Positions 8,067 through 23,952 of a stretch of DNA of 34,388 bases are shown piece after piece. Origin of the DNA: Parachlamydiales bacterium. GTDB taxonomy: Bacteria > Chlamydiota > Chlamydiia > Chlamydiales > Rhabdochlamydiaceae. The stretch spans positions 1-34,388 of the forward strand of contig JAGVJV010000006.1 in the NCBI GenBank assembly GCA_020050965.1. Direction: 5' to 3'. Position numbers and translations under genes: made by a program. Numbering within the stretch: position 1 is the first letter of the stretch; the number at the start of each line of letters is the position of its first letter. The notes under the pieces were generated by a model, which was not told the DNA's origin, ran no database searches, and saw nothing but the letters and a program-made list of their open reading frames with translations.

Positions 8067-8713
8067 CCACAATGACTGACGCAATGAGGCAGGCTATCCA
8101 ATTTCAATTGTATGACGTCCACACGGCATTGCCGGGCCAAGTAATATCTTATGACTATTCGACTCAAAAGGCTTCAATACAGCCCTGTTTAAAGAAGAGT
8201 TATTTGGACGGCACTACTCAAGAAATGCCCATTCTAAATAATGTTCCTGTAATTTTCCCAAAAGCGGGCGGAGCCAGCCTGACTTTCCCTGTTATGCCGG
8301 ACGACAACTGCTTGCTTTTGTTTATTGAAAGAAGCACGGATCTTTGGAAATCGGTAGGAGGCATAGTCGCCCCTAACGATCCCAGAAAATTCGACCTTTC
8401 TGATGCCGTTGCAATCATGGGTTTAATGCCATTCTCAGAAAATTCTTTATCCGAAAACAACGAAGACGTGCTTTTAACGTATAAAAACTCTAGTATAAGA
8501 ATTAAAGCTAGTGGGGATATTCAAATCCAAACAGCTTCAAAAGTGGCGATAGGAAATGCTTCAGCAGAAGTGCTCGATATCGTCAGCAGCATACTCGGAA
8601 TATTGGCAACTTCTGTGACAACAGCTCCAGGAAGTCCAATTTTCCAAGGAGTAGGACCCACATACGCAACTTTAAAATTCGCTATAGACTCTATTAAGGG
8701 ATCAATTCCTTAA
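8063..8713 (+). CDS. Central spike protein, Gp138 N-terminal-domain-like
   Basis: ATG 8063 overlaps the hub stop as ATGA (the track start 8033 lies inside the hub gene). LYDVHTALPGQVISYDYSTQKASIQPCLKK...PVIFPKAGGASLTFPVMPDDNCLLLFIERS matches the phi92 gp138-type spike N-domain pattern. Confidence 0.6.
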   Translation: MTTMTDAMRQAIQFQLYDVHTALPGQVISYDYSTQKASIQPCLKKSYLDGTTQEMPILNNVPVIFPKAGGASLTFPVMPDDNCLLLFIERSTDLWKSVGGIVAPNDPRKFDLSDAVAIMGLMPFSENSLSENNEDVLLTYKNSSIRIKASGDIQIQTASKVAIGNASAEVLDIVSSILGILATSVTTAPGSPIFQGVGPTYATLKFAIDSIKGSIP

Positions 8714-8801: not shown

Positions 8802-9164
8802 ATGAAAGATATCGCGCTGGATCCGACAACCGGCGACTTGCTCTTAGAAAATTTTGACCTTCAACTAGTGGAAGGCCGCGATCAAATCGCTCAAAACTTA
8901 GCGATCAGGCTTCGCTTTATCCTAGGAGAATGGTTTTTAGACACCACAGCCGGCGTTCCCTATTACGACGATTTCTTTATCAAAGCTCCCAACCAAATCC
9001 GCATTGAAAGCGTTCTTAAAGAAGAAATTCTTGATACTCCTGGAGTTAACCAAATTCTCAGCTTTGCGAGCAATTTCGATGCTCAGCGCCGTGCCTATTC
9101 CGTTGTTTTCTCCGTAATCACTACTCAAGGCGAGATCACTCTAACAGAGGAGCTCGTAGCATGA
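8802..9164 (+). CDS. Baseplate wedge protein, gp25/W-like (DUF2634-like)
   Basis: 120 aa. DPTTGDLLL...LVEGRDQIAQNLAIRLRFILGEWFLDTTAGVPY is the classic motif of this family. Directly precedes and overlaps the J-like gene. Confidence 0.65.
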   Translation: MKDIALDPTTGDLLLENFDLQLVEGRDQIAQNLAIRLRFILGEWFLDTTAGVPYYDDFFIKAPNQIRIESVLKEEILDTPGVNQILSFASNFDAQRRAYSVVFSVITTQGEITLTEELVA

Positions 9165-11146
9165 CTTCTCAATTCGGCCTTACCCCTCAAGGATTTAAAA
9201 TCAAACGCCTCCCCGACATTCACGCAGAGAATCAAAATCTCCTGCTGGCTGCCTTCGGGGAAATCAACCTTGATCCTCAATCTATCTTCGGCCAACTCAT
9301 CGGCGTGCTTTCCAAAGTGGAAGCCGACATATGGGAAAACATGCAGGACGTCTATTTCAGCCAATATCCAAACTCCGCTGAAGGGATCAGTCTTGACAAT
9401 GTCGTTCAACTAAACGCCATCACAAGACTCGCAGCTCAACAAACAAATGTTACCGCCGTATGTTCTGGATTAGAAGGCACTCTCATCAATCAGGGCGCAC
9501 TGGCCCGAATTCCAGATACAGGCGCGGTTTTCTTCTGCCAGATAGATTCGTTTATCACACGGTCGAATGCAGCCTCCGCTAATGTGCAAGTCGGTTTGGC
9601 TGCAGCTCAATCTTACACCGCCATCATCAATAATCAGGCCATCACTTATTCTCTTCCGATCATCACCTTCACAGGAAGCTTCGTTACTGGAAACTCGATT
9701 GTTGCCACACTAAATGGCACGACACTGCCTGCCGTCCCTTTCAACACGAGCAATAACCAAACCCTTGCAGACTTAGCCTCTGCGATTGCAGCAAATCCTG
9801 ACGTATTATCTGCTACGCCAACCAATCCGAATATCATCAGCATTGTCCCCGTATTAGGCAAAAATGTTGTGGTCAACTCGATCGTCATAACGGGAGGGGC
9901 GTCGCAACCCACCTATGCGGTGACTTTCGATACGCCAACAATCAATGCGGTCTCCCAAAATTTAACCAGCATTATCAATGCTGCAATTTCAACTGTATTA
10001 GCAACGGATCTGGTAGGAAGCCTGTCAATTGTAGCTAACGACCCCGATGTCCCTTTCTCCATCAGCGTAGGAACGAATTTAAGTATTTCTTCTCAATCCT
10101 CTCCCGTTACTTTTTTATCTCAAGACTTTGCTCCTATTGCCGCTCCCATCAATACCTTGGTCGAAATCCTCACTCCTATTTCCGGATGGAATTCGATCAA
10201 TAATCCAAAAGCCGGGGTTACTGGACGCTTTATCGAAACAGATGCTGAATTGCGCATCAGAAGAAACAACTCCATTCGCCTTTTAGGAGCAGGAACTGTT
10301 GAATCCATCAGAGCCCGCCTCCTTCAGCAAGTTCCAGGCGTCACCTCCGCTTTTATTTTCGAAAATAGAACGATGACTCAAGAGCCGATCGACATCGTCT
10401 TGAATCAGGATTTGGTCGCAGGGAATACGATCACAATCGTTTTCAATACCATTCAGACGCTTCCCATTGTCACTTTCGTCACCTCCCATCTGGATACTAT
10501 GAACGCGATAGCACTCGTCATAGCCAACCAGCCTCAAATTGCCTCTGCTGTTGTGGGCGGAACAGCAAATCGAACTATCACCGTATCTATGAAAGAGGCC
10601 GTCGAGGTTGCTATCACAACATTTTCAGTCACAGGCGGCGCGAGCCAAGCGCAAGCAGTATTCAAAGGCGGGCGCCTCGCCAAAAGTTTCGAAGCAGTCG
10701 TAGAAGGAGGTTCCGATGCTGACGTTGCAAATAAAATCTGGCTTACCAAACCGGCGGGCATCCAAACCTTCGGTAATACGGCCTTTACCATCACCGACTC
10801 ACAAGGCGAGCAGCAAGTCATCAACTTCAGCCGCCCCACCCCCATCTACATTTGGATTACGGCTGCACTGACCCTCTATTCCGAAGAGACATTTCCTCCC
10901 AATGGGCAGGATTTGGTCGCAGAAGCCATCAATACTTATGGAAACAATTTAGGGATTGGAGTCGATGTTCTTTTACAACGGGTTCTAGCTCAAATCTTCA
11001 ATGTCCCAGGGATTGCAAGCGGCGCCATGCAGATTGCAGCTACTAACGGTCCCGGCGACAGCCCTCTCTATGGAACGGCAGATATTCCGATCCAAGAAAA
11101 TGAAATAGCGGTATTCGACCTATCGCGCATTACGGTGACGGTATGA
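9161..11146 (+). CDS. Baseplate J-like wedge protein with inserted repeat domains
   Basis: 661 aa with ATGA overlap. TDAELRIRRNNSIRLLGAGTVESIRARLLQQVPGVTSAFIFEN and the C-terminal part fit the Baseplate_J family. Extra repeat units related to those in the sheath are inserted. Confidence 0.8.
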   Translation: MTSQFGLTPQGFKIKRLPDIHAENQNLLLAAFGEINLDPQSIFGQLIGVLSKVEADIWENMQDVYFSQYPNSAEGISLDNVVQLNAITRLAAQQTNVTAVCSGLEGTLINQGALARIPDTGAVFFCQIDSFITRSNAASANVQVGLAAAQSYTAIINNQAITYSLPIITFTGSFVTGNSIVATLNGTTLPAVPFNTSNNQTLADLASAIAANPDVLSATPTNPNIISIVPVLGKNVVVNSIVITGGASQPTYAVTFDTPTINAVSQNLTSIINAAISTVLATDLVGSLSIVANDPDVPFSISVGTNLSISSQSSPVTFLSQDFAPIAAPINTLVEILTPISGWNSINNPKAGVTGRFIETDAELRIRRNNSIRLLGAGTVESIRARLLQQVPGVTSAFIFENRTMTQEPIDIVLNQDLVAGNTITIVFNTIQTLPIVTFVTSHLDTMNAIALVIANQPQIASAVVGGTANRTITVSMKEAVEVAITTFSVTGGASQAQAVFKGGRLAKSFEAVVEGGSDADVANKIWLTKPAGIQTFGNTAFTITDSQGEQQVINFSRPTPIYIWITAALTLYSEETFPPNGQDLVAEAINTYGNNLGIGVDVLLQRVLAQIFNVPGIASGAMQIAATNGPGDSPLYGTADIPIQENEIAVFDLSRITVTV

Positions 11147-11165
11147 CAAACCAGGAGACAGCCAG

Positions 11166-11924
11166 ATGGTCTTAATACCGAATCATGTTCAAAGAGCGAT
11201 CGCACTGCTTGCCGGACAATTCCAGCAAAGCTTGCTGGATGGAGAATATAGCCGGTTCCAACGATTAATCCAGGCTTTTGTCACTCAATTTCAAGAGATA
11301 GACGATGTAAATCAAACGTTGAAATTTGATCGGGCTATTGAAACAGCTGTCGGTGTTCAACTCGACGGCCTAGGGCAGATATTAGGACTCGCCCGGCTGC
11401 CGGACGAAGGCGATGAAGATTACAGGGAAAAGCTGAAATTCCAGATTTTCATTAACAAATCTAATGGAACGCCTGAGGAAGTGATCGCCGTCCTCAAATT
11501 TTTGACTAAAGCAACCAAGGTGCGCTACCACGAATACTATCCGGCAGCTTTTCAAATGGACACAGACGGAATCACCTTCTCCGTTCCTCCGGAGCAGCTG
11601 GTTTCGGCTATTCAATCAGTGAGCCCGGCGGCAGTTCAATACACTCCCATTACAGCAACCTACGGGGTTCCTCTTCCATTTATTTTCAGCGGAGACCCGA
11701 TTATAGAACTGCTCGATGTTTCTCCATTTGAATCCGATCCATTCGACCTCAGAAATCTTCAAGTGCAGACGACCGATCTTTTAGCAGTTAATGCCGGGAA
11801 TGTTGCCAATCCAGCATTTGGAGGCTGTTTTGCAGAATTTGGAACGCCCGACATCGATACGACTGGAGCCGGGCAAATGGCAGAAGTAATCATGTTTAAT
11901 GGCTTTGAGCCGCCACCACCTTAA
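11166..11924 (+). CDS. Baseplate/fibre-socket protein, DUF2612-like
   Basis: 252 aa with AGGAGA RBS. FDRAIETAVGVQLDGLGQILGLARLPDEGDEDYREKLKFQIFINKSNGTPEEVI matches the DUF2612 pattern (tA.G.qLD.lG.ivG..R...dd..yR). Confidence 0.7.
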   Translation: MVLIPNHVQRAIALLAGQFQQSLLDGEYSRFQRLIQAFVTQFQEIDDVNQTLKFDRAIETAVGVQLDGLGQILGLARLPDEGDEDYREKLKFQIFINKSNGTPEEVIAVLKFLTKATKVRYHEYYPAAFQMDTDGITFSVPPEQLVSAIQSVSPAAVQYTPITATYGVPLPFIFSGDPIIELLDVSPFESDPFDLRNLQVQTTDLLAVNAGNVANPAFGGCFAEFGTPDIDTTGAGQMAEVIMFNGFEPPPP

Positions 11925-11934
11925 GGAGACCATT

Positions 11935-12402
11935 ATGGTATCAAAACCAACCGTCCTGCCGGAATGGGCAGAAAATGATGTTGTAGATCCAATCTCAGGG
12001 CAAAATAACGTCCTGGAACCGCCTCCAGAAAAAAAACTCGAAGGCTGGGCAAGGCTCGAATATCCGCCAAGAAACTGGTTCAACTGGCTAGCCCGTTATA
12101 CCTGGAGATGGCTGAACTGGCTAAATCAGCAGGAAGAGCAGGCAATTGTCACAGATGGGTCCGGAACCAATATCTTTCCAACCAGCGGCTCTCTTTGCGT
12201 CTTATTTGCCGTCGACACAGCAAATCCAGCTTCCTATCTCTACGCAATTGGAGCAAATGTCGGAGGGACAGTGACTTTAACGACAGTGGCCAGTGCAACC
12301 TTAGCCATCGGCGTGATTTCCGGAACTTCCGTCCCCATTACAGGAGCTGCAGATCCATCGACAATCATCGCTTGGGGACAAACAAAAATTATTCCGTCTT
12401 AA
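11935..12402 (+). CDS. Tail fibre protein (proximal, baseplate-attaching)
   Basis: ATG 11935 lies behind AAGGAG (the track start 11899 is inside the previous gene). LPEWAENDVVDPISGQNNVLEPPPEKKLEGWARLEYPPRNWFNWLARYTWRWLNWL is a common N-terminal motif of phage tail fibres. Confidence 0.6.
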   Translation: MVSKPTVLPEWAENDVVDPISGQNNVLEPPPEKKLEGWARLEYPPRNWFNWLARYTWRWLNWLNQQEEQAIVTDGSGTNIFPTSGSLCVLFAVDTANPASYLYAIGANVGGTVTLTTVASATLAIGVISGTSVPITGAADPSTIIAWGQTKIIPS

Positions 12403-12411
12403 GGAGAAACC

Positions 12412-13014
12412 ATGAGCACACCTGTACTGATAAGCGATCTTGATCCTGTAGGCGCAATAGATCCTGCCAATGATCTAACTATTGTTCATCAAGGATTTAC
12501 TGATAAAAAAGCCACCATTGCTCAAATAAGGAATTTCGATATCTCCCTATTCGATCCGCTTCCGAGCACGGCTATCAATAACGACTTGCTGGTCATAGGA
12601 AGAGGTTCGACGAATTATCAAATCCGATTCGACCAGGTCAGCTTTGTCGCAGGCACCCAACTCTGGTTTTATCAGGATGTAGCGCCCAGCGGATGGGTAA
12701 CAATTCCCGTCGGCGATTGCTTACTAGGAGTCAAAGGAGGGTCCACCTACACCGTCGGAGGCTCGCTACCCCAAGGAACGTGGCAGACAGCGGATCACAC
12801 CTTGACAATCAACGAAATGCCAGCTCACTCCCATACAATTTCACCATTTTTAATCGGCAAAAATCAGAGAGGTTCGGCTGATACTAAACCATGGAGATCC
12901 GATCACGGAGGAGAGGTTACAACCTCCACCGTTGGAGGAAATGCGCCTCATAATCATGGAGCCTCTTGGAGGCCCCTAGCTGCAACAGGAATTTTATGCC
13001 AAAAACAACCTTAA
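12412..13014 (+). CDS. Tail fibre / receptor-binding protein with phage tail collar-like domain
   Basis: 200 aa with AAGGAG RBS. LTINEMPAHSHT and GGNAPHNHG resemble the Collar / microcystin-dependent-protein family motifs (emP.H.H ... GG...H.N). Confidence 0.65.
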   Translation: MSTPVLISDLDPVGAIDPANDLTIVHQGFTDKKATIAQIRNFDISLFDPLPSTAINNDLLVIGRGSTNYQIRFDQVSFVAGTQLWFYQDVAPSGWVTIPVGDCLLGVKGGSTYTVGGSLPQGTWQTADHTLTINEMPAHSHTISPFLIGKNQRGSADTKPWRSDHGGEVTTSTVGGNAPHNHGASWRPLAATGILCQKQP

Positions 13015-13041
13015 AAAATTAACCAACAATGGGAGAACTCA

Positions 13042-13401
13042 ATGGACTGTACTTCATGTAAAGAAAACTGCCCATTTGTCAAGAGCAAATTATGCGCTTC
13101 CGAAAGAGAATGCCCCAATTTCATGGAATCATGGTGGCAAGAAGGAGGAACCGGGCAGCCGAAGGTTATAGCAGATTGCGCTCCCAAGAGAATGCTGATT
13201 CAGCAGCAGATGGAAGTTAACCGCATGTTCGCGCTGCAGCAGGCCATTGAACAGATGAGAAACCGCCTCGAAAAGCTAGAAGGTCTATTAGGTCAATTGA
13301 TAGAGCAAAGCAAAGAGTACGTTCTCCAGCAAGCTCCTAAGCAAATCGCTAAAAAATCAAACAGGAAGGCGCTTGGCCATGAGTCATCCAATTCTTCTTG
13401 A
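13042..13401 (+). CDS. Cys-rich coiled-coil protein, hypothetical (fibre assembly factor?)
   Basis: 119 aa. Six Cys in the first 46 residues (CTSCKENCPFVKSKLCASERECPNF...DCAP), then a heptad-like helical region (QQAIEQMRNRLEKLEGLLGQLIEQSKE). No family recognised. Confidence 0.5.
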   Translation: MDCTSCKENCPFVKSKLCASERECPNFMESWWQEGGTGQPKVIADCAPKRMLIQQQMEVNRMFALQQAIEQMRNRLEKLEGLLGQLIEQSKEYVLQQAPKQIAKKSNRKALGHESSNSS

Positions 13402-13708
13402 CGCTCTTTCTTGCGAGTTTACGGATAAAAAGCATCTCTCGCCTTCACTGCGGGAAAATGCTTCTCCTGCTTCTGGATCGTTCGTCGTCATAAACCCAAC
13501 GCAAATCATTCCCCTCTTACCCAAATTCCCCAATGCAAAAATGACGGCACATCCATCGAAGGTCTGCTCAGCAGAATCAGGATATTCAACTTTTGCAGCT
13601 CGAAAGATCGATATCCGGCGAGCAGCAAAAGGCCCAGCAGGGCGTAAACATCGTTTAACAACAAAGAAAGAGGCAAGAATATGGCTCGCAATTCATCAGT
13701 CAACTTAG
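13379..13708 (+). CDS. Questionable ORF bridging an otherwise unassigned 280-bp gap
   Basis: ATG 13379 lies 9 nt after AGGAAGG. Encodes a 109-aa basic protein that overlaps both neighbours (23 and 28 nt). No motif recognised, and two antisense frames are also open here. Confidence 0.25.
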
Positions 13709-14346
13709 ATATTTCCAACCTGACGGTTGGATTCAGCATCGGAGGCGGCGCTACAAAAAGAACCGTCACCTACAACGGAAGCGGGGATTACACCCTCACC
13801 AATCAATTTGCCGGAGCGGGGGTTTATACATTCCCCAATAGAGCAGCCGATACTTTAATCGGCTTCGCAGACTATACCGCAAAGGGCGTGATCTTAGTCG
13901 GTACTGGATCGGGAACATTTACTCCATTAACCGTCGGAACAGACACTTTTGTCTTAACCGCCGATTCCACTCAGACATCAGGCGTCAAATGGGCAGCATC
14001 AAGTGGTGGCGGGGGCATTAGTTCATGGATAGACGTTACCGGAACCTCTCAAACAATCGCAGTCAATACCGGCTATATCGCCGACAACGTTGCTTTAGTC
14101 ACCCTGACTCTCCCAACCACAGCAGCTCAAGGCACCACCTTCAGAATTGCGGGAAATGGAGCAGGCGGGTGGCTGTTGGCCCAGAATGCCTCGCAAACGG
14201 TCAATTTTGGAAGTGCAGCCACAACGGCTGGAGTCGGAGGCAGCTTGGCTTCAACAGACCCAGGCGATGCCTTAGAGTGCCTCTGCGTGGTCGCCAATAC
14301 CACATGGAGAGTGTTGAGTGCAGTCGGCAACTTGACCGTCGTTTAG
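13681..14346 (+). CDS. Fibre-family protein A1 (shared adaptor module plus small C-terminal domain)
   Basis: 221 aa. Adaptor-like segment [45 protein letters not shown]. The C-terminal ~105 aa align with ORF 18971..19474 (..GGSLAST...W.VLS.VGNLTVV). Confidence 0.65.
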
Positions 14347-14383
14347 CAAACAAGAACATCCTCACTGTAATGGGTTTTGTAAA

Positions 14384-14881
14384 ATGATTCAAAATAACGC
14401 TGTAAATACATCGATTATCGTTAAAAACAATCAAGTTACGCGTCCATTGCAGTGTACGTTTTTTGCCCAACTAAACGCAAACTTAGGAAATGTCACCGGA
14501 GATGGAACCGTCTACCAGATTCCCTGTGACAATGTCATTGTAGATCAAAGCTCAAGCTATAATCCTCTTACAGGCGTTTTCACAGCTCCTGTGCTAGGAA
14601 ATTATATTTTTGGAGCCTCTATCAACACTCAAGGACTAACGCCCGGAATGAGTGTGTATGTCTTAAAATGCATGACAACAGTGAGAGAATATCGACTTGT
14701 AGAAATGGGAGCCATTACTCCTTCATCTGCATCTCAAACTCTTCAAATAGCCGGTTGTATTTTTGCCCGAATGAATACAAATGATACTGCAATTTTTACG
14801 ATTCAGGTTGCTGGAGGATCAAAAGTTGTCTCCCTACAACCCAATGGCATCTCTTTCATATACGGCTATCTCTTGGATTAA
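14384..14881 (+). CDS. C1q/TNF-like jelly-roll domain protein B1
   Basis: 165 aa. IPCDNVIVDQSSSYNPLTGVFTAPVLGNYIFGASI fits the C1q signature core (x5-[ND]-x4-Y-x6-F-x5-G-x-Y-x-F) except for its first residue. Confidence 0.6.
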   Translation: MIQNNAVNTSIIVKNNQVTRPLQCTFFAQLNANLGNVTGDGTVYQIPCDNVIVDQSSSYNPLTGVFTAPVLGNYIFGASINTQGLTPGMSVYVLKCMTTVREYRLVEMGAITPSSASQTLQIAGCIFARMNTNDTAIFTIQVAGGSKVVSLQPNGISFIYGYLLD

Positions 14882-14886
14882 AAATT

Positions 14887-15414
14887 ATGACTATAAGCAA
14901 CTCTATCAACAATCCAGACTACATCTCAAAAGGGCAAATTCTTGTAGGGAGAAATGGCACTCGTCCTATCATGCTCAATTGGGGATCTTTGAATGGACAG
15001 GTGCTTGCTTGCGACTCTACTACTTCTAGTGGTTTCAAGTACATGTATGGGATGACCGGTTATTACTTGAATACGTTTAATGCAAAAAATACTGGCAATA
15101 CCATCTTCTTTACTACCCCTTCCAGCGGATTTCGTTTTTTCCCTACTCACATCATCATGAGCGTTCTCTTTGCTTCTTCGATTTCCGCTGGCGCGAGTAT
15201 TTCTATCGGCACGAATGGCTCTAGTTACAACAACATCTTGGCGAATACTTCCTTCATCGGACTGACAGCAGCTAATAACTATCAAGTGGTTCAACTCAGC
15301 GGAGTTTTAAACGCTATCCCCGTTAACACGTCAGGATATTTGAATGTTAATACCGCGGCAATAGGGACGTCTATCACGATGAGCTGCGTCATCGTAGGTA
15401 CTTGGTCGCAATAG
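14887..15414 (+). CDS. Fibre-family protein X (adaptor module plus unique C-terminal domain)
   Basis: 175 aa. N-terminus ISKGQILVGRNGTRPIMLNWGSLNGQVLACDSTTSSGFKYM is a diverged copy of the shared adaptor. Confidence 0.55.
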   Translation: MTISNSINNPDYISKGQILVGRNGTRPIMLNWGSLNGQVLACDSTTSSGFKYMYGMTGYYLNTFNAKNTGNTIFFTTPSSGFRFFPTHIIMSVLFASSISAGASISIGTNGSSYNNILANTSFIGLTAANNYQVVQLSGVLNAIPVNTSGYLNVNTAAIGTSITMSCVIVGTWSQ

Positions 15415-15422
15415 AGGAAAAC

Positions 15423-16874
15423 ATGACGACTAACACTTCTATCAATACGCCAGCTCTCTTCAATAAAGGAGATCTTCTTCTGGGACAAGGCAGTGGGCTA
15501 AGACCCAGCGTTCTTCCCGCAGGAGCTAACGGGTTAGTTTTGACGTTAGATAATACTCAGCCTACTGGAGCTAAATGGGCTGCTGGAGGAGGCGGTGGAA
15601 GTACTTTATCTCCTTATATCGTAGGTGCAACGGAAAGCGATTTTACGACGATTCAAGCTGCCATTGATCAAGCTGTGACTGATGGGGCGTCAAAAACAAA
15701 CCAAAAGAACGTCTATGTGAAACCTGGCACTTATAATGAGAATATCTCGCTTTTCGACGGAATAAATGTTCTAGGGTTTGACCCCTATCCAAGCGAGGAC
15801 TATCCAGGCATTCAATTCCCAAACAATGGATTCTTATCTGCTGTCTTGACTGGAACGGTTACTCATAGCAGTGGGGATAGCAAGATTTACAATATTTATA
15901 TTAAGCCAGGAGATGGCTTCAATGCTTTTAATTTAAGCGCTATCGGCGGACTTCTTTTTATCCGAGGATGTCGATTCGATCTTCCTACTACTTCGATTTT
16001 GTTAAATTTCAGCAATGCAGACACGGTTGTCATATCTGATTGCATTTCAGCTAGTGGGTTCGGTCAATTTCTCACATGTACCTCAACCGACATAGCCTCA
16101 GTGGCTATTTTTAGTAGCGAAATTTTATCAATGACAACATCTACTCTTCCTATGGGAGGGGCATCAATTCAGCTCTCAAATAGTTATCTATACGCCTCTA
16201 TAGACGCTTCAAACGCATCCATTTTTTATTTTCAAGCCTACGATTCTCAGCACTGGCCCAATGGAAGTGATCCATTGATTCAAATAGGAGCGTCCACAAA
16301 CTCATTTATTACTTACGTCGGGTCACAATTTGCTTCTCCAGAAAACAATGCCTTTATCATTCCCAATAGCGATACGCCAGTTCGTCTAGTCAATTCTTGG
16401 AATATTAGCGGTGGAAACAATGTGAGTGGTGGGGGCATCGCTTTTAAAAACTTCATCACAGGGCCGTCAGGGGAGAGCATTTTAGTCAAAAACATTAGTG
16501 CCGGCTTCAATGGCACGGATTACATCTTTACTCAAGGCGGTTTGCAAACATCAGACGACTCTACTCAGCTACTTGCAAGTATGGTCTTAAACACGAACGA
16601 GTCAATCACGTTAATGGGAAACGTTGTAGGCGCTCAAAGCGATCATAGCAATGCCGTGGGAGGAGATTTTACCGTTACAGCAAGAAGAAGTTCAGGAGAC
16701 ATAACCTTAATCGGTAGCCCTATCGTGAATGTCCGTTCTTCATCAACGGCTACCTTCACCGTAGATGTCGATACAACAACACAGTCTGCACGCGTGCTTG
16801 TCACTGGGGTTGCAGCTACCGTTTATAACTGGGTTGCTACTCTGCAATATCAAAAAATACTAACCAATGCGTGA
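15423..16874 (+). CDS. Tailspike C1, right-handed beta-helix (pectin-lyase-fold-like) putative depolymerase
   Basis: ATG 15423 lies behind GAGGAAA (the track start 15402 is a TTG inside the previous gene). Shared adaptor MTTNTSINTPALFNKGDLLLGQGSGLRPSVLPAGANGLVLTLDNTQPTGAKWAAGGGGG. Then YIVGATESDFTTIQAAIDQAVTDGAS..NVYVKPGTYNENISLFDGINVLGF, typical of beta-helix N-caps. Confidence 0.75.
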   Translation: MTTNTSINTPALFNKGDLLLGQGSGLRPSVLPAGANGLVLTLDNTQPTGAKWAAGGGGGSTLSPYIVGATESDFTTIQAAIDQAVTDGASKTNQKNVYVKPGTYNENISLFDGINVLGFDPYPSEDYPGIQFPNNGFLSAVLTGTVTHSSGDSKIYNIYIKPGDGFNAFNLSAIGGLLFIRGCRFDLPTTSILLNFSNADTVVISDCISASGFGQFLTCTSTDIASVAIFSSEILSMTTSTLPMGGASIQLSNSYLYASIDASNASIFYFQAYDSQHWPNGSDPLIQIGASTNSFITYVGSQFASPENNAFIIPNSDTPVRLVNSWNISGGNNVSGGGIAFKNFITGPSGESILVKNISAGFNGTDYIFTQGGLQTSDDSTQLLASMVLNTNESITLMGNVVGAQSDHSNAVGGDFTVTARRSSGDITLIGSPIVNVRSSSTATFTVDVDTTTQSARVLVTGVAATVYNWVATLQYQKILTNA

Positions 16875-16880
16875 ATAAAT

Positions 16881-18425
16881 ATGACGATTAATACTTCCAT
16901 CAATACACCAGCCCTCTTCAACAAGGGAGACCTCCTTCTAGGAAAAGGAGGAGGCTTAAGACCTGGTATTCTTCCAGCTTCAACGAATGGGTTTGTGTTA
17001 ACACTTGATAATACCCAGCCGACTGGAGCCAAATGGGCTACCGCTTCTGGAGGAGGAACGACTCTTTCACCCTATATCGTAGGATCGACAGGCAGTGATT
17101 TCACGACAATTCAAGCGGCTATCAATCAAGCCGTGACTGATGGGGCCTCTCATTCAACTCCAAAAAATATCTATATTAAATCTGGAACGTACGTCGAAAA
17201 CCTTATAGTATATGATGGGATCTCTCTTATTGGATTTGACCCTATCAACTTCACTCAAGATTACCAATATGGAATACCAAACATCTCGAGCCTTCCAAGT
17301 ATTCAATTAACGGGGAGTATTTCTTTTTCTCCAAGCGGCGGTCAATCGTGCAAAATTTTCAATATGTGGATCCAACCAACAACAGGATCTGCTATTTATC
17401 TGACCTGCGCTTCTCTTACAGGCATTCTTTTTAAAGGTTGCTTTATTCAAACCACTCAATCTGGGAACTCCATTTTTTCTTATACCCCGGCAGTTGCGAC
17501 CATGTGGGTTTGTTTTGAAGAAAGCGTCTTGTCCGACAACACAGCCAATACCACTTTGTTTAGCTATACAGGCTCTGGCGGCTTGCTCAAGCTCATAATC
17601 TCAAATTGCTTCGTCCAAGCATCACAAATTCAAGCTGCTATAATCCCGGCAAGTTCCACTTTCCATATGCAAGTTTCGAGCACCGTTCTTCTCTCATGCT
17701 TTGACGCGTCTGCTAGTTCAGTCTATTACCAATTTGTCGCGTATAACACCATGCACATTCAAACAGGTGCGGTCTCAATTGGAGCCTTCCATTTAATCGG
17801 CGCCTCAACAACAAACAGCTCATACATTGATTACACTAATTCTTCGATTGGCATATCAAGCGTTAATAAAGTAGCCATCATCAACAATTCAAACATCTCT
17901 TTTAATGCATTCAATACTTCCTTCTGGGGTCCTAACTTAATGACTGCAGGCTACTCCGACGTGATTACAGGAGGAAAAGTCGTTACTGCCGGATGCCAAT
18001 GCAGTCCAGCTGCAGGTCTATTTCTAGAAAGAAGGCAGTTAATCGGATCTGGATTCACTGGCTCGCAGCAGTACACAGGGCAAGCAGGTCTACAAACTTC
18101 AAACAGCACAATGCAAACACTCGCCGCAATTGTTGTTAATCAAGCTGAATCCATTACTCTTACAGGGACCATTACAGCGGCCCAAAATGATCATTCCAAC
18201 ATGGTGGGCGGAGATTTTCTTATTTGTGCAAGGAGAGCCAGTGGAGGAAATGTCACTCTTATAGGATCGCCTATTGTCAATGTCGAAAGCTCTTCCGCTG
18301 CTACTTTTACCTGCGATGTCGACACTTCCACACAGGCAGTGCGCATCAGAATCTCTGGAATATCCTCAACGATTTACAACTGGGCTTGCACTTACAGCTA
18401 TCAAAAAGTCTTAACAAATGCATAA
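16881..18425 (+). CDS. Tailspike C2, paralog of C1 with a divergent central beta-helix
   Basis: 514 aa. The N-terminal ~110 aa and C-terminal ~110 aa align with C1 (..DHSN.VGGDF...ARR.SG...TLIGSPIVNV.SSS.ATFT.DVDT.TQ...YQK.LTNA). The central region is not obviously alignable. Confidence 0.75.
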   Translation: MTINTSINTPALFNKGDLLLGKGGGLRPGILPASTNGFVLTLDNTQPTGAKWATASGGGTTLSPYIVGSTGSDFTTIQAAINQAVTDGASHSTPKNIYIKSGTYVENLIVYDGISLIGFDPINFTQDYQYGIPNISSLPSIQLTGSISFSPSGGQSCKIFNMWIQPTTGSAIYLTCASLTGILFKGCFIQTTQSGNSIFSYTPAVATMWVCFEESVLSDNTANTTLFSYTGSGGLLKLIISNCFVQASQIQAAIIPASSTFHMQVSSTVLLSCFDASASSVYYQFVAYNTMHIQTGAVSIGAFHLIGASTTNSSYIDYTNSSIGISSVNKVAIINNSNISFNAFNTSFWGPNLMTAGYSDVITGGKVVTAGCQCSPAAGLFLERRQLIGSGFTGSQQYTGQAGLQTSNSTMQTLAAIVVNQAESITLTGTITAAQNDHSNMVGGDFLICARRASGGNVTLIGSPIVNVESSSAATFTCDVDTSTQAVRIRISGISSTIYNWACTYSYQKVLTNA

Positions 18426-18457
18426 GGGAAACATGAATCATAGAAAGGAAATATCCG

Positions 18458-18946
18458 ATGACGGGATTTAATAATGGCTTTTTGCTTTCTGATAATTTTC
18501 CCTTCTTTGCCTATCAAAGCACCTCACAATCAGCGATCACTGGTGGAGGAGCCACAGCCACACTAATTTGTGACACAGAAATATTTGATCCATTCAATGG
18601 ATATGATCCATCGACAGGACTCTATACGATCCCTTCAATCTTTCCCATCGGCACATGGTTTTTCCAAGGGAAAGTAACTATCACAGGCATTACTGCCTCC
18701 CATACCACAGCTATATTTTCTATCACCAACGTCAATAGGAATCTGTATTACGAAATAAATGCTGCTAATTCGAGAACTTCGGGTAATGAACTGACACTAC
18801 AAGTATGCGGTTTTATAAATGGAATCAGCCCTGGAAGCATAATCAACCCGCAAATCCAAGTTCTTGGCGGATCTAATGTCGTAGGAACAAAGGCTACTGG
18901 AGATCAATGGTGTGATTTTGGAGGAATTTTCATTAAATCGAGCTAA
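18458..18946 (+). CDS. C1q/TNF-like domain protein B2
   Basis: 162 aa with AAAGGAAA RBS. LICDTEIFDPFNGYDPSTGLYTIPSIFPIGTWFFQGKV parallels the B1 motif, with a 3-residue insertion before G-x-W-x-F. Confidence 0.5.
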   Translation: MTGFNNGFLLSDNFPFFAYQSTSQSAITGGGATATLICDTEIFDPFNGYDPSTGLYTIPSIFPIGTWFFQGKVTITGITASHTTAIFSITNVNRNLYYEINAANSRTSGNELTLQVCGFINGISPGSIINPQIQVLGGSNVVGTKATGDQWCDFGGIFIKSS

Positions 18947-18970
18947 AGATTTCAATAGAGGAAAAAATAG

Positions 18971-19474
18971 ATGACTCATAATTCCATTAACACCCCAGCC
19001 CTTCTTAGTAAAGGAGACCTACTCCTAGGAAAAGGTGGCGGCCTTAGCCCCGCTATTTTATCAGCTGCAACCAATGGATTCGTTCTAACACTCGATAACA
19101 CGCAGCCTACAGGAGCCAAATGGGCGGCTAGTGGAGGTGGTGGCGGAATTACATGGAATACCGTTTCTGGAACATCTCAATCGGCGGCTGTGAACAACGG
19201 CTACATCGCGAACAACGCAAGCCTTGTCACTGTTACTCTTCCTTCGAGTGCTTCAGTCGGAGATATGGTCGAAATAGCCGGAAAGGGAGCAGGCGGATGG
19301 AAGGTCGCACAAAACTCAGGCCAGGTCATCCACATGGATGGCGTGGACTCAACGACTGGAACTGGAGGCAGCCTTGCCTCTACAGTAAGATACGATGCAG
19401 TTCGTCTGCTTTGTATTACAGCTAATACGGATTGGCTGGTCCTCTCAGGAATCGGCAACTTAACGGTGGTGTAA
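18971..19474 (+). CDS. Fibre-family protein A2 (adaptor plus A-type C-terminal domain)
   Basis: 167 aa with GAGGAAAA RBS. INTPALLSKGDLLLGKGGGLSPAILSAATNGFVLTLDNTQPTGAKWAASGGGGG, then a domain alignable with the A1 C-terminus. Confidence 0.65.
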   Translation: MTHNSINTPALLSKGDLLLGKGGGLSPAILSAATNGFVLTLDNTQPTGAKWAASGGGGGITWNTVSGTSQSAAVNNGYIANNASLVTVTLPSSASVGDMVEIAGKGAGGWKVAQNSGQVIHMDGVDSTTGTGGSLASTVRYDAVRLLCITANTDWLVLSGIGNLTVV

Positions 19475-19475
19475 T

Positions 19476-20228
19476 ATGCCAGTACAAGATTTCATCAATC
19501 GATACGCGATGTCCACGGGGTATACGAATAAGCTTTCAGGATTGGCTTACGTTCCTGCAAACGGAACGCCAGCAGCTAGTGGAACTGTAGATTGGTATAC
19601 GTGTCCAGCAGGGAAAAGAGCAGCTGTCATGGGGATAAGCTATTGCTCTCCTTCAGGAAATGCAAGCATAACCCCAATGCTTAAGTCGGGGGGCAATTAT
19701 TACAACCTGAATGTTACTCAAACAGCCACATCTATCGGAGTAGGTGCAGGCGGAATCGTCAATCTCATCATCTTGGAAGCTGGTGAATCGATCTCGACCA
19801 ATCAAAGCACGTCTTCGATCAACGTGTGGATTTCGATTATGGAGTTTGATTCGGATATTCCCTTCAAGACAGTGAAGCTTCTTTCATTGGCCAGCGGAAA
19901 TAACACTCTTTATAGCTGCCCTGCAGGGAAAACAGCTATTTTTGTAAGCGATAATCTCAGTCCTTTATCAGCCAGTTCAGTTAAGTCCGTTAATTATTGG
20001 AACAATAGCGGAGGAAGCAGAAACATTTCAGCTTATCATGTGCCTAACGGAGGATCTCCAGGATCAAGCAATCAATTTTTACCCACAATCCCTCAAGCCG
20101 TTGCAAATAGTTCCTTTATGACAAATTCAGCAGTAAGTAATTGCATGAACGCAGGCGACTCAATTGTAATCAATACCGATGCAGCCACAGCAACTCAATT
20201 TGCGTGGGTAACAGTGCAGGAGATTTAA
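19476..20228 (+). CDS. D-family protein 1 (two tandem ~115-aa domains), function unknown, probably structural
   Basis: 250 aa. Each half starts with Y(T/S)CPAGK(R/T)A and ends with an (A/E)G(D/E)SI...W..(V/I).E(F/I) pattern. Paralogous to the next two genes. Confidence 0.65.
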   Translation: MPVQDFINRYAMSTGYTNKLSGLAYVPANGTPAASGTVDWYTCPAGKRAAVMGISYCSPSGNASITPMLKSGGNYYNLNVTQTATSIGVGAGGIVNLIILEAGESISTNQSTSSINVWISIMEFDSDIPFKTVKLLSLASGNNTLYSCPAGKTAIFVSDNLSPLSASSVKSVNYWNNSGGSRNISAYHVPNGGSPGSSNQFLPTIPQAVANSSFMTNSAVSNCMNAGDSIVINTDAATATQFAWVTVQEI

Positions 20229-20969
20229 ATGCCTAATCAAAATGATGTAAACAATCTGATTTATCACCCTGAAGGGGTGTATTTGCCGGGTGTAAAATTT
20301 CCATCCGCATTCGTCTCTAACGCAGGATCAGGCAATGTGGATATGTACACTTGCCCTGCAAGCAAAAGAGCCTGTGTGAGTTACATTATTGGCTACAACA
20401 CGGCTGGAACAACCACACCCATTTTTCCAGTTCTTTATGTGAGCGGCACTTATTATCGCATAGGAGGAGCTGGGAACGCGGCTACAACAGCGCAAACACA
20501 GGTTTTAGTAGCCAACCAAGCTATAATTTTAGAGGCTGGGGAAAGAATCGGCGTAAATACAACTCAAGTTGGCATGAATCTTTGGGCCAATATTGTTGAA
20601 TTCGATAATACAGCTCCCATCAAGAGCAGCAAGGTTGTGAGCTTGTCCAATGGAAATAACACTGTTTATACGTGTCCTTCAGGTAAAAAAGCGATCACTC
20701 TAGACCAATGGTTTAAAACGAATTTTACCTTGAAAAAGGTCTTCTATTTCAACAATTCAGGGAACAGCGTTTCTTTGATTTGGTACGCCGTTCCTAGCGG
20801 AGGATCACCTGGATCTACAAACCAAATGGGAACAGAAACTGTTACTACAGGATCAGCCTCAGCTCGACTCATTGGCGGCTTAATATTAAGCGCGGGTGAT
20901 TCCATCGTAGTCAATACAAACGTAGGAACGGGAACTCAAACCGCTTGGGTCAACGTAATGGAGCTATAA
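20229..20969 (+). CDS. D-family protein 2
   Basis: 246 aa. The start abuts the previous stop. Motifs YTCPASKRA and YTCPSGKKA. C-terminus SAGDSIVVNTNVGTGTQTAWVNVMEL. Confidence 0.65.
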   Translation: MPNQNDVNNLIYHPEGVYLPGVKFPSAFVSNAGSGNVDMYTCPASKRACVSYIIGYNTAGTTTPIFPVLYVSGTYYRIGGAGNAATTAQTQVLVANQAIILEAGERIGVNTTQVGMNLWANIVEFDNTAPIKSSKVVSLSNGNNTVYTCPSGKKAITLDQWFKTNFTLKKVFYFNNSGNSVSLIWYAVPSGGSPGSTNQMGTETVTTGSASARLIGGLILSAGDSIVVNTNVGTGTQTAWVNVMEL

Positions 20970-20970
20970 A

Positions 20971-21696
20971 ATGGGAAATAATGTCATAAACAATACCGTT
21001 TTCATAAGTGGTTTTGGCCCTCTAGTGAGAGGGGCTAAGTTCGTTAATGCATTCTCTGGAAGTACCTCTGGAACCGTCGACATTTATACATGTCCTGCAG
21101 GAAAAAAAGCTTTCATCACCCAAGTGATGGGTATTAGCTCTCCGATTATGACAGGGGGAATGCAACTAAAAGTTTCAGGAAATTATTACAATATTACTCC
21201 TCAGAACACCGGCTGGGGAAATATAGCCACTAATTCGTTTGGAATTGTACTAAATGCAGGTGAGGGATTGTCGTTCACGGTGAACTCTAATGCCGGAGGA
21301 AATCTTTGGGCTAGAGTGATGGAAATGGATATTTCTACCCCCATTTATACTGCAAAGCTATTGAGTTTATCTGCAGGAGACAACACTATTTTCACCGTCA
21401 GCGCGGGGAAAACAGCTATTACTCTAGATACTCTTGGAGGAGTCTACGTCAACGGATCTGGAGGTTTATATAAAAATTTCTCTGGAGCAAGCAGAAGCAT
21501 TAAAGTCTACCACGTTCCAAATGGTGGCTCTAGCGGAACTGGCAATCAATACTTTCAAAACACCGCTGTGGCAAACAGTTCTGGGGTCGTCGTCCCTTCC
21601 GTTCCTGCCTCCATGAACGCAGGCGACTCAATTGTGATTAATACAGACGCAGCTACGGCTACGCAATGGGTTTATATGACATATTATGAAATCTAA
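20971..21696 (+). CDS. D-family protein 3
   Basis: 241 aa. Motifs YTCPAGKKA and FTVSAGKTA. The C-terminal MNAGDSIVINTDAATATQ is identical to D1 at protein level, including a 23-nt exact DNA match (20145-20167 = 21613-21635). Confidence 0.65.
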   Translation: MGNNVINNTVFISGFGPLVRGAKFVNAFSGSTSGTVDIYTCPAGKKAFITQVMGISSPIMTGGMQLKVSGNYYNITPQNTGWGNIATNSFGIVLNAGEGLSFTVNSNAGGNLWARVMEMDISTPIYTAKLLSLSAGDNTIFTVSAGKTAITLDTLGGVYVNGSGGLYKNFSGASRSIKVYHVPNGGSSGTGNQYFQNTAVANSSGVVVPSVPASMNAGDSIVINTDAATATQWVYMTYYEI

Positions 21697-21697
21697 G

Positions 21698-21746
21698 ACC
21701 CCCTAAAAGTTCAGTTTCAATCTCATCAAAAATCAGGGGTTTTTTG
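21698..21746 (+). terminator. Weak terminator-like hairpin plus T-run at the end of the late operon
   Basis: ACCCC (21698-21702) pairs with GGGGT (21736-21740), followed by T5 and G. The stem is only 5 bp and the loop is ~33 nt, so this is atypical. Confidence 0.3.
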
Positions 21747-21775
21747 TTCACTCTTTTAACATTTCTTTGTATAAT
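21747..21775 (+). promoter_or_regulatory. Candidate sigma70-type promoter for the CoiA-like gene
   Basis: TTCACT (21747-21752), a 17-nt spacer, then a perfect TATAAT (21770-21775), ~40 nt upstream of the start codon. Confidence 0.3.
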
Positions 21776-21816
21776 TTCTCTCTACCAACGGTCAATAAAA
21801 AGGAAACGTGGTAGGA

Positions 21817-22608
21817 ATGAAATATGCATTAGTAAATGACACTCCTCAAGAAGCCCAGCCTGGCCTTTCCGGAAAATGCAAATGCTGTGGTAGTCCGACT
21901 ATACCAAAGTGTGGAGAATTGAAAATTTGGCATTGGGCCCACAGCGGAAAACGGATGTGTGATCCCTGGTGGGAAAATGAAACCGAATGGCACCGCGCAT
22001 GGAAAGGGCACTTTCCTAAAGAGTGCCAAGAGGTCATTCATACCGCCGTAAATGACGAAAAGCACATTGCTGATGTGAAGACAGGTCAAAGTTACGTAAT
22101 TGAGTTCCAGCATTCCCATCTAGCTTCTCAAGAACGAATCATACGTGAGGCTTTCTATCAAAATATGGTATGGGTTATCGACAGTACGCGCCTAAAGAAA
22201 GATTATCCCCGCTTTCTTGAAGCAAGAAAAAATTTCAGTCCTATCTACAAACCAGGATTCTTCTTGGTCTATTTCCCTGAAGAATGTTTCCCCGCTGCAT
22301 GGGTTGAGAGCTCAGTGGAAGTTGTTTTCGATTTCCAAGGTAATCCACCAACCGATTCGCAAGATGGGATGCGAGATACCCTATGGTGTTTGTTACCGGG
22401 ACGCGCTAGAAGAGGTGCTGTGGTGATTGCAATTTCGCGTCAGACTTTCATAACAACACTCTTGAAACAACCTAGGTTGCTTCCGAATCCGGCTCACGAG
22501 TTTGTTAACGCTCTCGATAAATTGCTTGCAGAACAAGCAGAGATAAGGGAACAACAGACACAAAAGCACCAATGGCAGCCTCGTAATAAGAGGACATGGC
22601 GGCTCTAA
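21817..22608 (+). CDS. CoiA-like nuclease-family protein
   Basis: ATG 21817 (the track start 21808 is a GTG). CKCCGSPTIPKCGELKIWHWAH ... EKHIADVKTGQSYVIEFQHSHLASQERIIREAFYQNMVWVIDS matches the competence protein CoiA-like family pattern (C..C...hFaH ... aDv....iEfQ.S.is..e...R...Y....vWi.d). Confidence 0.65.
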   Translation: MKYALVNDTPQEAQPGLSGKCKCCGSPTIPKCGELKIWHWAHSGKRMCDPWWENETEWHRAWKGHFPKECQEVIHTAVNDEKHIADVKTGQSYVIEFQHSHLASQERIIREAFYQNMVWVIDSTRLKKDYPRFLEARKNFSPIYKPGFFLVYFPEECFPAAWVESSVEVVFDFQGNPPTDSQDGMRDTLWCLLPGRARRGAVVIAISRQTFITTLLKQPRLLPNPAHEFVNALDKLLAEQAEIREQQTQKHQWQPRNKRTWRL

Positions 22609-23184: not shown

Positions 23185-23952
23185 ATGCACAAGATAGCAA
23201 TTTCGAATCAAAAAGGGGGCGTTGGAAAATCCACAACCTCTATCAATCTGAGCGCAGGACTTGCTCATGCTGGAAAAAAGGTTCTTCTTGTTGACTTAGA
23301 TCCACAAGGTCACTCTAGCATAGGTCTTGGAATCAAGACTGAAAATCGCCAAACAATCGCAGAACTCCTATGTCATGATGACTGTGAGTTAAAAGATGTG
23401 ATCCAACCTTCATACATCAAGAATCTAGATGTAATCCCATCTGACAATTCTCTCTCTGTGGCTGAGTATAAATTAGCGCAAACCCAGGCAAAAGAATTTG
23501 TATTAAGAACAAAACTGAAAAAAGCTGATTACGATTACATCATCATCGACACTTCCCCTACTTTTAACACTCTTTTAGCAAATGCTTTTCTAACAGCCGA
23601 ACACATCATCTTGCCAGTCCAACTCGATTATTTTAGCCTAGCTGGCATTCAATCATTCTTAGAGTCAATTAATCGAACCAATGCTAAAGCTGGCAGCCTT
23701 GTTGATCACCGCGCCGAAATCATGGGCGTTCTTTTTACCTTCTTCAAAACCCGAAGCAATCTTTCAAAAAGAGTCCTAGAAACGATTAACGAGCTCTTTG
23801 GCAATAAGGTTTTTGAAACCCGCATTCCAGAAAACGTAAAACTCAGTGAAGCTCAAGAATCCAGCAAAGCGGTCTTTGATCACGATCCTAAATGCAGCGG
23901 GGCTGAAGCCTATCTAAGTCTTGTTAATGAAGTTATGAGGAGATTGAAATAA
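23185..23952 (+). CDS. parA: ParA/Soj-family partition ATPase
   Basis: 255 aa. Deviant Walker A in IAISNQKGGVGKSTT, and LLVDLDPQG. Small ParA size typical of type Ib partition systems. Confidence 0.9.
   Translation: MHKIAISNQKGGVGKSTTSINLSAGLAHAGKKVLLVDLDPQGHSSIGLGIKTENRQTIAELLCHDDCELKDVIQPSYIKNLDVIPSDNSLSVAEYKLAQTQAKEFVLRTKLKKADYDYIIIDTSPTFNTLLANAFLTAEHIILPVQLDYFSLAGIQSFLESINRTNAKAGSLVDHRAEIMGVLFTFFKTRSNLSKRVLETINELFGNKVFETRIPENVKLSEAQESSKAVFDHDPKCSGAEAYLSLVNEVMRRLK

Follow-up and report, generated by a model that had tools for sequence, protein, structure and literature searches.

How a phage with a simple tail baseplate could come to carry ten consecutive genes of receptor-binding type is the question raised by the stretch of DNA analysed here, comprising 34,388 nucleotides of contig JAGVJV010000006.1 (assembly GCA_020050965.1) from a Parachlamydiales bacterium and hereafter referred to as the window. 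The ten + strand open reading frames (ORFs) between 13681 and 21696 that were reported in an earlier note, made from the letters of the DNA, are all present at those positions. They form a block of 8.0 kb with intergenic gaps of 0-37 bp and fall into families A (two members), B (two), C (two) and D (three), together with the single gene X, in the order A1, B1, X, C1, C2, B2, A2, D1, D2, D3 (Table 1). We read this block, with a probability of roughly 0.6, as a hypervariable host-recognition locus that encodes co-expressed receptor-binding components built from interchangeable modules on a phage with a simple baseplate; by analogy with known multi-receptor phages, we infer that several of these components may be displayed simultaneously on one virion. 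The evidence was drawn from the proteins themselves and from approximately 25 related loci collected from Logan and NCBI assemblies, IMG/VR and GTDB metagenome-assembled genomes (MAGs), the genes of which were classified by module (individual loci and proteins are denoted by L and P numbers).

The paralogue families that had been proposed were supported by all-against-all BLASTP, with E values of 4e-48 for A1/A2 (in their knobs), 6e-10 for B1/B2, 6e-113 for C1/C2 (45% identity) and 1e-36 to 2e-49 within family D (D1/D2, 1e-46; D1/D3, 2e-49; D2/D3, 3e-36). The start of C1 is also as previously given, namely the ATG at 15423 rather than an upstream TTG at 15402, and homologues begin MTTNTSIN.

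The distal domains of these proteins provide the most direct indication of host recognition. In the AlphaFold2 (AF2) model of C2, with a predicted local distance difference test score (pLDDT) of 74.7, residues 1-63 are unmodelled (pLDDT ~30), residues 64-370 form a right-handed beta-helix and residues 395-514 form a beta-sandwich. The best Foldseek matches of this model in the PDB are phage tailspike depolymerases: the entries include 6c72 (1.9e-9), 7xy1, 5w5p, 8iq5 and 6w4q, and the proteins are Acinetobacter Fri1 gp49 (1.9e-9), Klebsiella Kp9 gp42, AM24, the K2-2 tailspike protein (TSP), Agrobacterium 7-7-1 fibres and CBA120 TSP2 (6w4q). Residues 44-110 of C2, which cap the helix, resemble the pectinesterase-like PRK10531, and the C-terminal domain of ~120 amino acids in family C retains 50-66% identity across proteins with far more diverged helices. 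C1 and C2 are thus predicted to be tailspike-type proteins of the beta-helix class. B1 matches the Pfam C1q family (PF00386) with 26.6 bits at a cut-off of 23.7, and a profile of B1 and B2 retrieves C1q (1.2e-9), cerebellin (3e-6), EMILIN-1 (1e-5), the NC1 domain of collagen X (1e-5) and also adiponectin from the PDB; from these profile matches, B1 and B2 are assigned as gC1q-type heads.

The AF2 model of D1 (pLDDT 83.7, predicted template modelling score 0.82) consists of two tandem jelly-rolls. Searches of the PDB with this model gave only generic double beta-sandwich matches (PHM, STIV and PRD1) with template modelling (TM) scores of ~0.4. In BFVD, D1 matched a phage protein of 722 amino acids (TM 0.82), cyanophage 'tail fiber-like' proteins in their C-terminal part (TM 0.60-0.64) and many single-domain proteins of ~110 amino acids, several of which are annotated as virion (structural) proteins. 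In addition, 76 homologues of D1 were found, the longer of which have N-terminal extensions resembling a fibre shaft, and D1-D3 are accordingly taken to be tandem jelly-roll proteins similar to cyanophage fibre tips. In other phages, domains of the B and D types are covalently attached at the tips of fibres or spikes. The earlier assignment of the block to host recognition is therefore upheld by the tailspike-depolymerase fold of C2, by gC1q heads that are fused to the C-termini of spikes in relatives and by the occurrence of the D fold at the tips of cyanophage fibre-like proteins. X, its distal part included, has no match in Pfam, PHROG or NCBIfam. A1 and A2 are predicted short stalks with a knob of ~105 amino acids at the end, and this knob recurs in relatives at the C-terminus of other proteins and, in P0029, internally. 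A match of this knob to TSP4-N of CBA120 (hhalign probability 27% over 33 columns; PDB hmmsearch E=0.97), located at TSP4 residues 94-127 in XD1, was not accepted as evidence of a branching domain; XD1 is a spacer and not a docking domain.

The second pillar of the original prediction was a module of ~50 amino acids, described as one shared adaptor, in A1, X, C1, C2 and A2. The similarity among these five carriers is statistically supported by BLASTP (A2-C1, 3e-18; A2-C2, 5e-17; X-C1, 5e-7; A1-C2, 4e-6). The module had been placed at the N-terminus and before a Gly run; it is N-terminal in four of the five carriers but internal in A1 (residues ~66-112), and the Gly run is absent from X. Nor do the carriers end in five different distal domains, as had been stated, but in three distal families (A, C and X). 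A 56-position profile of the module was searched against 1.84 billion representatives of 50%-identity clusters, with 10,780 proteins matching at E<=1e-3, of which 1,642 reach E<=1e-10; the best hits have 3-25 internal copies. Among the 150 highest-ranking proteins, a list ordered by summed score that hence favours multi-copy proteins, the copies are spaced at 46-57 amino acids, mostly number three to six and stand at the very start in only 11 of 150; 149 of these 150 best family members have 2-15 copies, with up to 25 matched stretches in the search with the 56-position profile. The consensus across the repeat family is ..KGDLLVGTG....RL.VGTNGQVLTADST...G.KWA. Conversely, a profile of 300 repeats from unrelated proteins, used for a six-frame search of the window, recovered exactly five copies at E values of 1e-10 (X) to 1e-20 (1.2e-20 for A1) and nothing else. 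Module-bearing proteins occur in PHROGs 38058, 4492 and 9851 ('tail fiber protein') and in the unannotated 33513, 32934 and 3030. No Pfam or NCBIfam family covers the repeat, and comparison of a narrow and a broad profile with PDB sequences gave nothing, or only spurious matches to beta-propeller blades.

Since the family matches 10,780 representatives and the independent profile recovers the five copies of the window, the 'adaptor' is a single unit of a generic, very widespread fibre-shaft repeat; its interpretation as a lineage-specific docking domain does not hold. Each carrier in the window has exactly one unit and no tandem array. The copies are old and tightly constrained at the protein level, because synonymous sites are saturated and the longest exact DNA word shared between copies is 14 bp: the synonymous distance (dS) is 1.36, 1.49 or saturated, the nonsynonymous distance (dN) is 0.09-0.15 and dN/dS is ~0.06-0.07 where dS is finite. 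These same values rule out recent duplication, gene conversion and DNA-level recombination boxes at the starts of the genes. The longest exact word anywhere in the block measures 24 bp and is shared by D1 and D3.

The related loci show how the block varies. In all of them the genes for baseplate J, the gpI-like protein and three small proteins (g11935, g12412 and g13042) stand in identical order, and differences begin after g13042; the variable block is bounded on the other side by CoiA or ParA. A gene with the 62-amino-acid N-terminal domain of A1 (A1N) is present in every relative in which the start of the block is covered, and occupies the first or second position behind g13042 except in L011, where several genes precede it (one small ORF does so in L049 and L052). 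A1N is 82-95% identical in all relatives, even where J is only 73-75% identical, and it is combined with knobs of at least two types. Being the most conserved N-terminal element, A1N is a better candidate for a baseplate anchor than the ~50-amino-acid module. Directly 5' of A1 in the window lies a gap of 280 bp (13401-13681), the largest in the late operon, which is spanned by an ORF of 111 amino acids with a TTG start (13373-13708) and a homologue in L049; this could be a small gene, or the gap could be a conserved regulatory region that opens the variable block.

Several gene combinations are kept among the relatives. An A2-type knob gene lies directly 5' of the D1-D2-D3 triple in eight of eight loci with either, the order D1-D2-D3 is retained in all relatives, and in nine of nine loci B1 comes immediately after a gene with an A-type knob at its end. 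In L047 (16122-20664), two tandem D1-D2-D3 triples with the same internal order are ~65% and ~95% identical to the triple of the window, which indicates that the D paralogues are transferred together and perhaps also act together; speculatively, an order that is fixed even when duplicated would be compatible with a heterotrimer. The earlier note had also drawn attention to a quasi-mirrored gene order (A-B-X-C, then C-B-A). This has no counterpart in the relatives, which have A1-B1, X-C and A2-D-D-D units in various combinations that are never inverted; A2 groups with D1-D3, a free-standing B2-type gene recurs in L052, and the mirrored order is best read as a coincidence.

Exchange of cassettes among relatives, both at gene boundaries and at the Gly hinge, is directly visible. 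The comparison of related genomes that the earlier note had recommended revealed a chimeric protein in L050, in which identity to A1 is 80-95% as far as 'KWAA-GGGG' and identity to A2 is 85-100% beyond it, with the switch exactly at the hinge; the A2 knob occurs behind A1N plus repeat or behind the repeat alone. The B2-type head is free-standing in the window and in L052, and constitutes the C-terminal domain of adaptor-bearing proteins elsewhere, with B2 being 56-58% identical to the last ~145 amino acids of P0028 and P0030 (595-596 amino acids) and of a 981-amino-acid protein in L001. The 39-kb contig L002 (1-11509) has B1-, C1- and C2-type cassettes and proteins that end in an A knob behind structural genes with no match to the baseplate of the window, and the ParA proteins of the two share only 31% identity, from which it follows that cassettes pass between different phage backbones. 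The block in the window is among the largest, with nine genes in L047 and at least nine in L052 before the locus ends. In three relatives (L048:17250-17927, L050:17268-17957 and L057:5752-6441), a protein of 225-229 amino acids without the N-terminal tag described below (MKKVMIATPAYDG...) follows a fibre cassette of 693-697 amino acids. The fibre cassettes of this size match Collar and DUF6242; the smaller protein, which has no family match, may be the product of a non-structural accessory gene within the block.

A further common element is found at the extreme N-terminus. The motif M-x-x-N-[NST]-x-[IV]-N opens almost all cassette proteins, among them B and D, which lack the repeat, and unrelated cassettes of relatives. 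Defined as the regular expression N.{1,2}[IVTD]N within the first 13 residues, this tag is present in eight of the ten block genes and in none of 31 others in the window (p=5e-7), and in 47 of 88 block genes compared with 0 of 182 others in relatives (p=2e-28). The signal lies in the protein because the codons differ at synonymous sites. As a conserved docking peptide, together with a branching domain, has been experimentally validated in KP32-type phages (PMC13352976), a role of the tag as a docking peptide is plausible by analogy.

All ten block genes are under purifying selection and are functional. Orthologue dN/dS values are 0.02-0.12 for the block, compared with 0.03 for J and 0.03-0.05 for ParA; they amount to 0.02-0.06 for A1, 0.05-0.12 for D2 and 0.07-0.09 for D3. 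For X, the orthologues in L001, L008 and L052 share 88-91% identity and have a low dN, with dS saturated in all but L052 (dN/dS 0.03), while the free-standing orthologue of B2 in L052 has 72% identity and a dN/dS of 0.06. Most of the block genes are preceded by Shine-Dalgarno-like motifs. A scan for promoters and terminators was uninformative, with counts not above the shuffled expectation (12 versus 18.9 and 12 versus 9.0). Programmed fibre switching, as in the invertible segments of Mu (G) and P1 (C) or by a diversity-generating retroelement (DGR-Mtd), was rejected: all block genes are on the + strand, the only inverted repeats found are five short imperfect pairs (16-28 nt, 71-88% complementary), and no invertase or reverse transcriptase is among the Pfam matches of the scanned window proteins.

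In the assembly that we propose, A1 would be the primary protein, fixed to the baseplate by the invariant A1N, and the other carriers would be mounted by their single fibre repeat, folded into a short trimeric stem. The B and D proteins, which have no repeat, would dock non-covalently, probably on the knob encoded just upstream, namely B1 on the A-type knob and D1-D3 on the A2 knob, and the tag M-x-x-N-x-x-[IV]-N, which is common to most of them, may contribute to docking. A virion assembled in this way would present several specificities simultaneously. Joint display is suggested by the precedents of CBA120 and RaK2 (PMC8825819, PMC10253068), and the docking of B and D by the occurrence of modules in split and fused forms and by the separately encoded tip adhesins of other phages.

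The earlier note likened the locus to the branched systems of CBA120, G7C and phi92. As a multi-receptor locus it does resemble them; however, homology to the CBA120/G7C apparatus is not apparent, since no T4-gp10-like branching domain was found, and, XD2/XD3 domains having gone undetected, the locus is not established as a member of the gp10-type branching class. As in CBA120 and Kuttervirus (TSP1-4) and in G7C (gp66/gp63.1), tandem receptor-binding genes lie 3' of the baseplate genes, and conserved modular N-termini are joined to variable distal parts. Depolymerase-type beta-helix spikes are also predicted, here only C1 and C2, with the C2 model matching the folds of TSP2 (6w4q) and TSP3 (6nw9). 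Branched complexes have precedents (PMC8825819, PMC10253068), and CBA120 has a primary member that is attached to the baseplate (PMC8825819), for which A1 is the proposed counterpart. However, CBA120 branches by means of the T4-gp10-like XD2/XD3 domains of TSP4 and TSP2, whereas only the inconclusive XD1-like match of the A knob is seen here; the common N-terminal element is instead one generic fibre-repeat unit, and half of the genes (B and D) encode small stand-alone tip domains rather than spikes. The Alcyoneusviruses RaK2 and phiK64-1 have at least ten fibre proteins with conserved N-terminal assembly domains and a primary protein with a lineage-specific anchor (PMC10253068). Their receptor-binding or fibre genes number about ten, as in the window, and are for the most part consecutive, but RaK2 is a jumbo phage with large depolymerases and CBA120-like D1/XD domains, whereas a genome of ~90-98 kb, a minimal baseplate, two beta-helix spikes among ten proteins and another domain repertoire are found here.

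In the podophages KP32, K11 and KP34, the second receptor-binding protein (RBP2) lacks an anchor and is mounted on RBP1 by a short conserved N-terminal peptide (PMC13352976, PMC6872550). The tag described here could play the role of this docking peptide, although it has only ~5-8 residues. The small tip adhesin gp38 of T2 and S16 is encoded beside the fibre gene, binds the fibre tip and confers specificity. A similar role is proposed for the free-standing B and D proteins, but there is no homology: S16 gp38 is a polyglycine sandwich, whereas B is predicted to be gC1q-like and D a tandem jelly-roll. Finally, the fibres of PHROGs 33513, 32934, 38058, 4492 and 9851 contain the same ~50-amino-acid repeat, but in 3-25 tandem, mostly internal copies, compared with the one copy per protein, N-terminal in four of five, that is found here. 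The locus is functionally comparable to the branched multi-RBP systems of CBA120, G7C, RaK2/phiK64-1 and KP32. Large RBP arrays are already known; this one is made of different parts, on a minimal baseplate and in an uncultivated lineage.

A number of points weigh against reading the block as a set of jointly displayed receptor-binding components. The presence of its proteins in particles and their simultaneous display are predictions from the genes, and no gp10-like XD2/XD3 branching domain was found with Pfam, PHROG or NCBIfam, the A-knob match to the XD1 of TSP4 reaching only 27%. The usual place of the repeat is in tandem arrays, as a unit of the shaft rather than a docking domain; the AF2 monomer of C2 leaves it unmodelled and no structure of it has been solved, so that a role as stem or dock is conjecture. 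The regular expression for the tag was chosen after the sequences had been seen, and B2 and D1 fit it only loosely. Furthermore, the A1 knob is not strictly paired with B1: in L014, L019, L054 and L056, Gly-rich proteins come after this type of knob, and in L009, L048, L050 and L057 the 693-amino-acid fibre comes after a divergent A1-type knob.

Alternative rather than simultaneous display, in which carriers compete for a limited number of docking sites and virions carry different subsets as a form of population-level bet hedging, is in our view unlikely, yet it deserves some weight. The simple baseplate speaks for such competition, as do the near-identical N-terminal modules of the five carriers, which are under strong constraint, and the variation in carrier number from one to at least five among relatives with unchanged baseplate genes. 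However, the genes are tightly packed and co-directional, there is no regulatory switch, invertase, DGR or credible inverted repeat, and known multi-RBP phages show all of their RBPs together (PMC8825819, PMC10253068). A further proposal concerns the B and D proteins, which might be assembly chaperones or accessory factors and not virion components. Chaperone genes typically lie 3' of fibre genes, as for T4 gp38/gp57A, Mu U', P2 G and lambda Tfa, and this is the position of B1, always after a gene that ends in a knob, and of the D triple, always after A2; neither B nor D carries the fibre repeat. This proposal nevertheless appears distinctly improbable, because B2-type heads form the covalent C-terminal domain of adaptor-bearing proteins of 595-981 amino acids in relatives, gC1q domains are globular trimeric heads, and the D fold recurs in the C-terminal part of fibre-like proteins and in 'virion structural protein' entries, with homologues that have fibre-shaft N-extensions.

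The suggestion in the earlier note that the locus is a reservoir for cassette exchange was borne out as far as exchange is concerned, by the relatives and by the hinge chimera. In its stronger form, a silent store of decaying or unexpressed cassettes kept only for recombination, it would fit the extensive variation in cassette composition among relatives and the paralogues duplicated within the window, but it is scarcely credible: none of the ten genes is disrupted, each has a start codon and most have a ribosome-binding motif, their dN/dS of 0.02-0.12 is as low as that of baseplate J, and the longest common words (14 bp among adaptor copies and 24 bp overall, D1/D3) leave no room for recent intragenomic gene conversion. 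A hypervariable locus of functional receptor-binding components remains our preferred reading.

The surroundings of the block identify the phage as a contractile-tailed myophage with a simple baseplate of the P2/Pam3/E217 type and a genome of ~90-98 kb (Table 1). The genes at 11935-13014, which had been called canonical fibre genes, are fibre-like but hardly canonical, encoding only 155 and 200 amino acids with weak matches to fibre families. A primase-helicase gene also lies 3' of the block, besides those for the CoiA-like nuclease and ParA. The sheath (residues 77-263, DNA 2436-2996) and J (residues 132-307, 9554-10081) have in common an insertion domain of ~187 amino acids (42% identity, 5e-26), with a second, weaker copy at J residues 412-499; this probably represents the duplication, between two tail proteins, of a surface-exposed decoration domain. 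No tRNA gene is present in the window or in L054.

Table 1. Positions of the genes, the fibre-repeat copies and the flanking features in the window.
Feature	Position	Strand	Remarks
Sheath, DUF3383 type	2208-4088	+	
Tape measure	5168-6238	+	
Dit-like protein	6238-6882	+	
Hub, E217_GP41-type	7203-8066	+	
Spike N-domain protein	8033-8713	+	
gpW-like protein	8802-9164	+	
gpJ-like protein (baseplate J)	9161-11146	+	
DUF2612 / gpI-like protein	11166-11924	+	
g11935, fibre-like protein	11935-12402	+	155 amino acids; weak PHROG tail-fibre/tail-protein matches
g12412, fibre-like protein	12412-13014	+	200 amino acids; weak PHROG tail-fibre/tail-protein matches
g13042, Cys-rich protein	13042-13401	+	119 amino acids; conserved left flank; weak PHROG tail-fibre/tail-protein matches
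A1	13681..14346	+	A1N (62 amino acids), repeat (residues ~66-112), Gly hinge, C-terminal knob (~105 amino acids)
B1	14384..14881	+	Free-standing gC1q-type head, 165 amino acids; tag MIQNNAVN
X	14887..15414	+	Divergent fibre repeat (residues 1-52) without Gly run; distal domain of ~120 amino acids
C1	15423..16874	+	Repeat (residues 1-55), Gly hinge, predicted right-handed beta-helix and C-terminal beta-sandwich (~120 amino acids); layout from the C2 model
C2	16881..18425	+	Architecture as C1; modelled representative
B2	18458..18946	+	Second free-standing gC1q-type head, 162 amino acids
A2	18971..19474	+	Repeat (residues 1-54), Gly hinge, A-type knob; opens the A2-D1-D2-D3 unit
D1	19476..20228	+	Two tandem jelly-roll beta-sandwich domains (model), 250 amino acids
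D2	20229..20969	+	Paralogue of D1; tag MPNQNDVN
D3	20971..21696	+	Paralogue of D1 and D2; tag MGNNVINN
Repeat copy, A1	13876-14016		
Repeat copy, X	14887-15042		
Repeat copy, C1	15423-15587		
Repeat copy, C2	16881-17045		
Repeat copy, A2	18971-19132		
CoiA-like nuclease	21808-22608	+	Right flank; Pfam CoiA_N and CoiA_nuc matches below cut-offs
ParA	23185-23952		After the CoiA-like gene; Pfam AAA_31/ParA

The lineage has no cultured relative among 50,697 GenBank phage records, in which neither window positions 9000-22000 (megablast) nor C2 and D1 (tblastn) had a match; the best matches of the sheath to GenBank phages are 36-40% identical, in Pseudomonas phages of ~94-101 kb. The closest relatives, with J 73-96% identical (among loci L046-L057), are contigs of 45-98 kb binned in MAGs of Chlamydiae, Parachlamydiaceae, Rhabdochlamydiaceae, Chlamydiota and Verrucomicrobia, and one lies on a 350-kb Parachlamydiaceae contig (CAVVXH010000002.1). 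On the latter (L054:19427-21980), synteny with L056 stops ~120 bp into ParA, the G+C content falls from 0.44 to 0.375 and an Na+/H+ exchanger gene follows; the break marks either the junction of a prophage or a chimeric assembly. Searches of the literature returned no tailed phage of Chlamydiota, and to our knowledge none is known, Microviridae being the only phages known for the phylum. If the association with Chlamydiota bins is real, the window and its relatives would represent tailed phages of this phylum.

A more far-reaching reading, which we consider doubtful, is that a minimal N-terminal signature (the tag of ~8 residues with or without one repeat) suffices to hang any tip module on knob platforms in a plug-and-play manner, with depolymerase spikes, gC1q heads and an obligate D1-D2-D3 heterotrimer, in the first recognised tailed phages or phage-plasmids of environmental Chlamydiota. 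If this were true, so many specificities could be of use on the varied surfaces of intracellular hosts.

Apart from the locus itself, the analysis exposes a very large family of tail-fibre repeats (~10,800 50%-identity representatives) without a curated family or a solved structure. Multi-receptor phages are natural models for broad host range and for the engineering of specificity. The natural recombinants among the relatives, namely the swap at the Gly hinge and the gC1q heads that are either fused or split, define module boundaries that are useful for such engineering. Here, ten recognition genes accompany a minimal baseplate, and their modules are unlike the T4-gp10-like branching domains of all characterised systems; the locus may therefore reveal a second way to build a multivalent adsorption apparatus.

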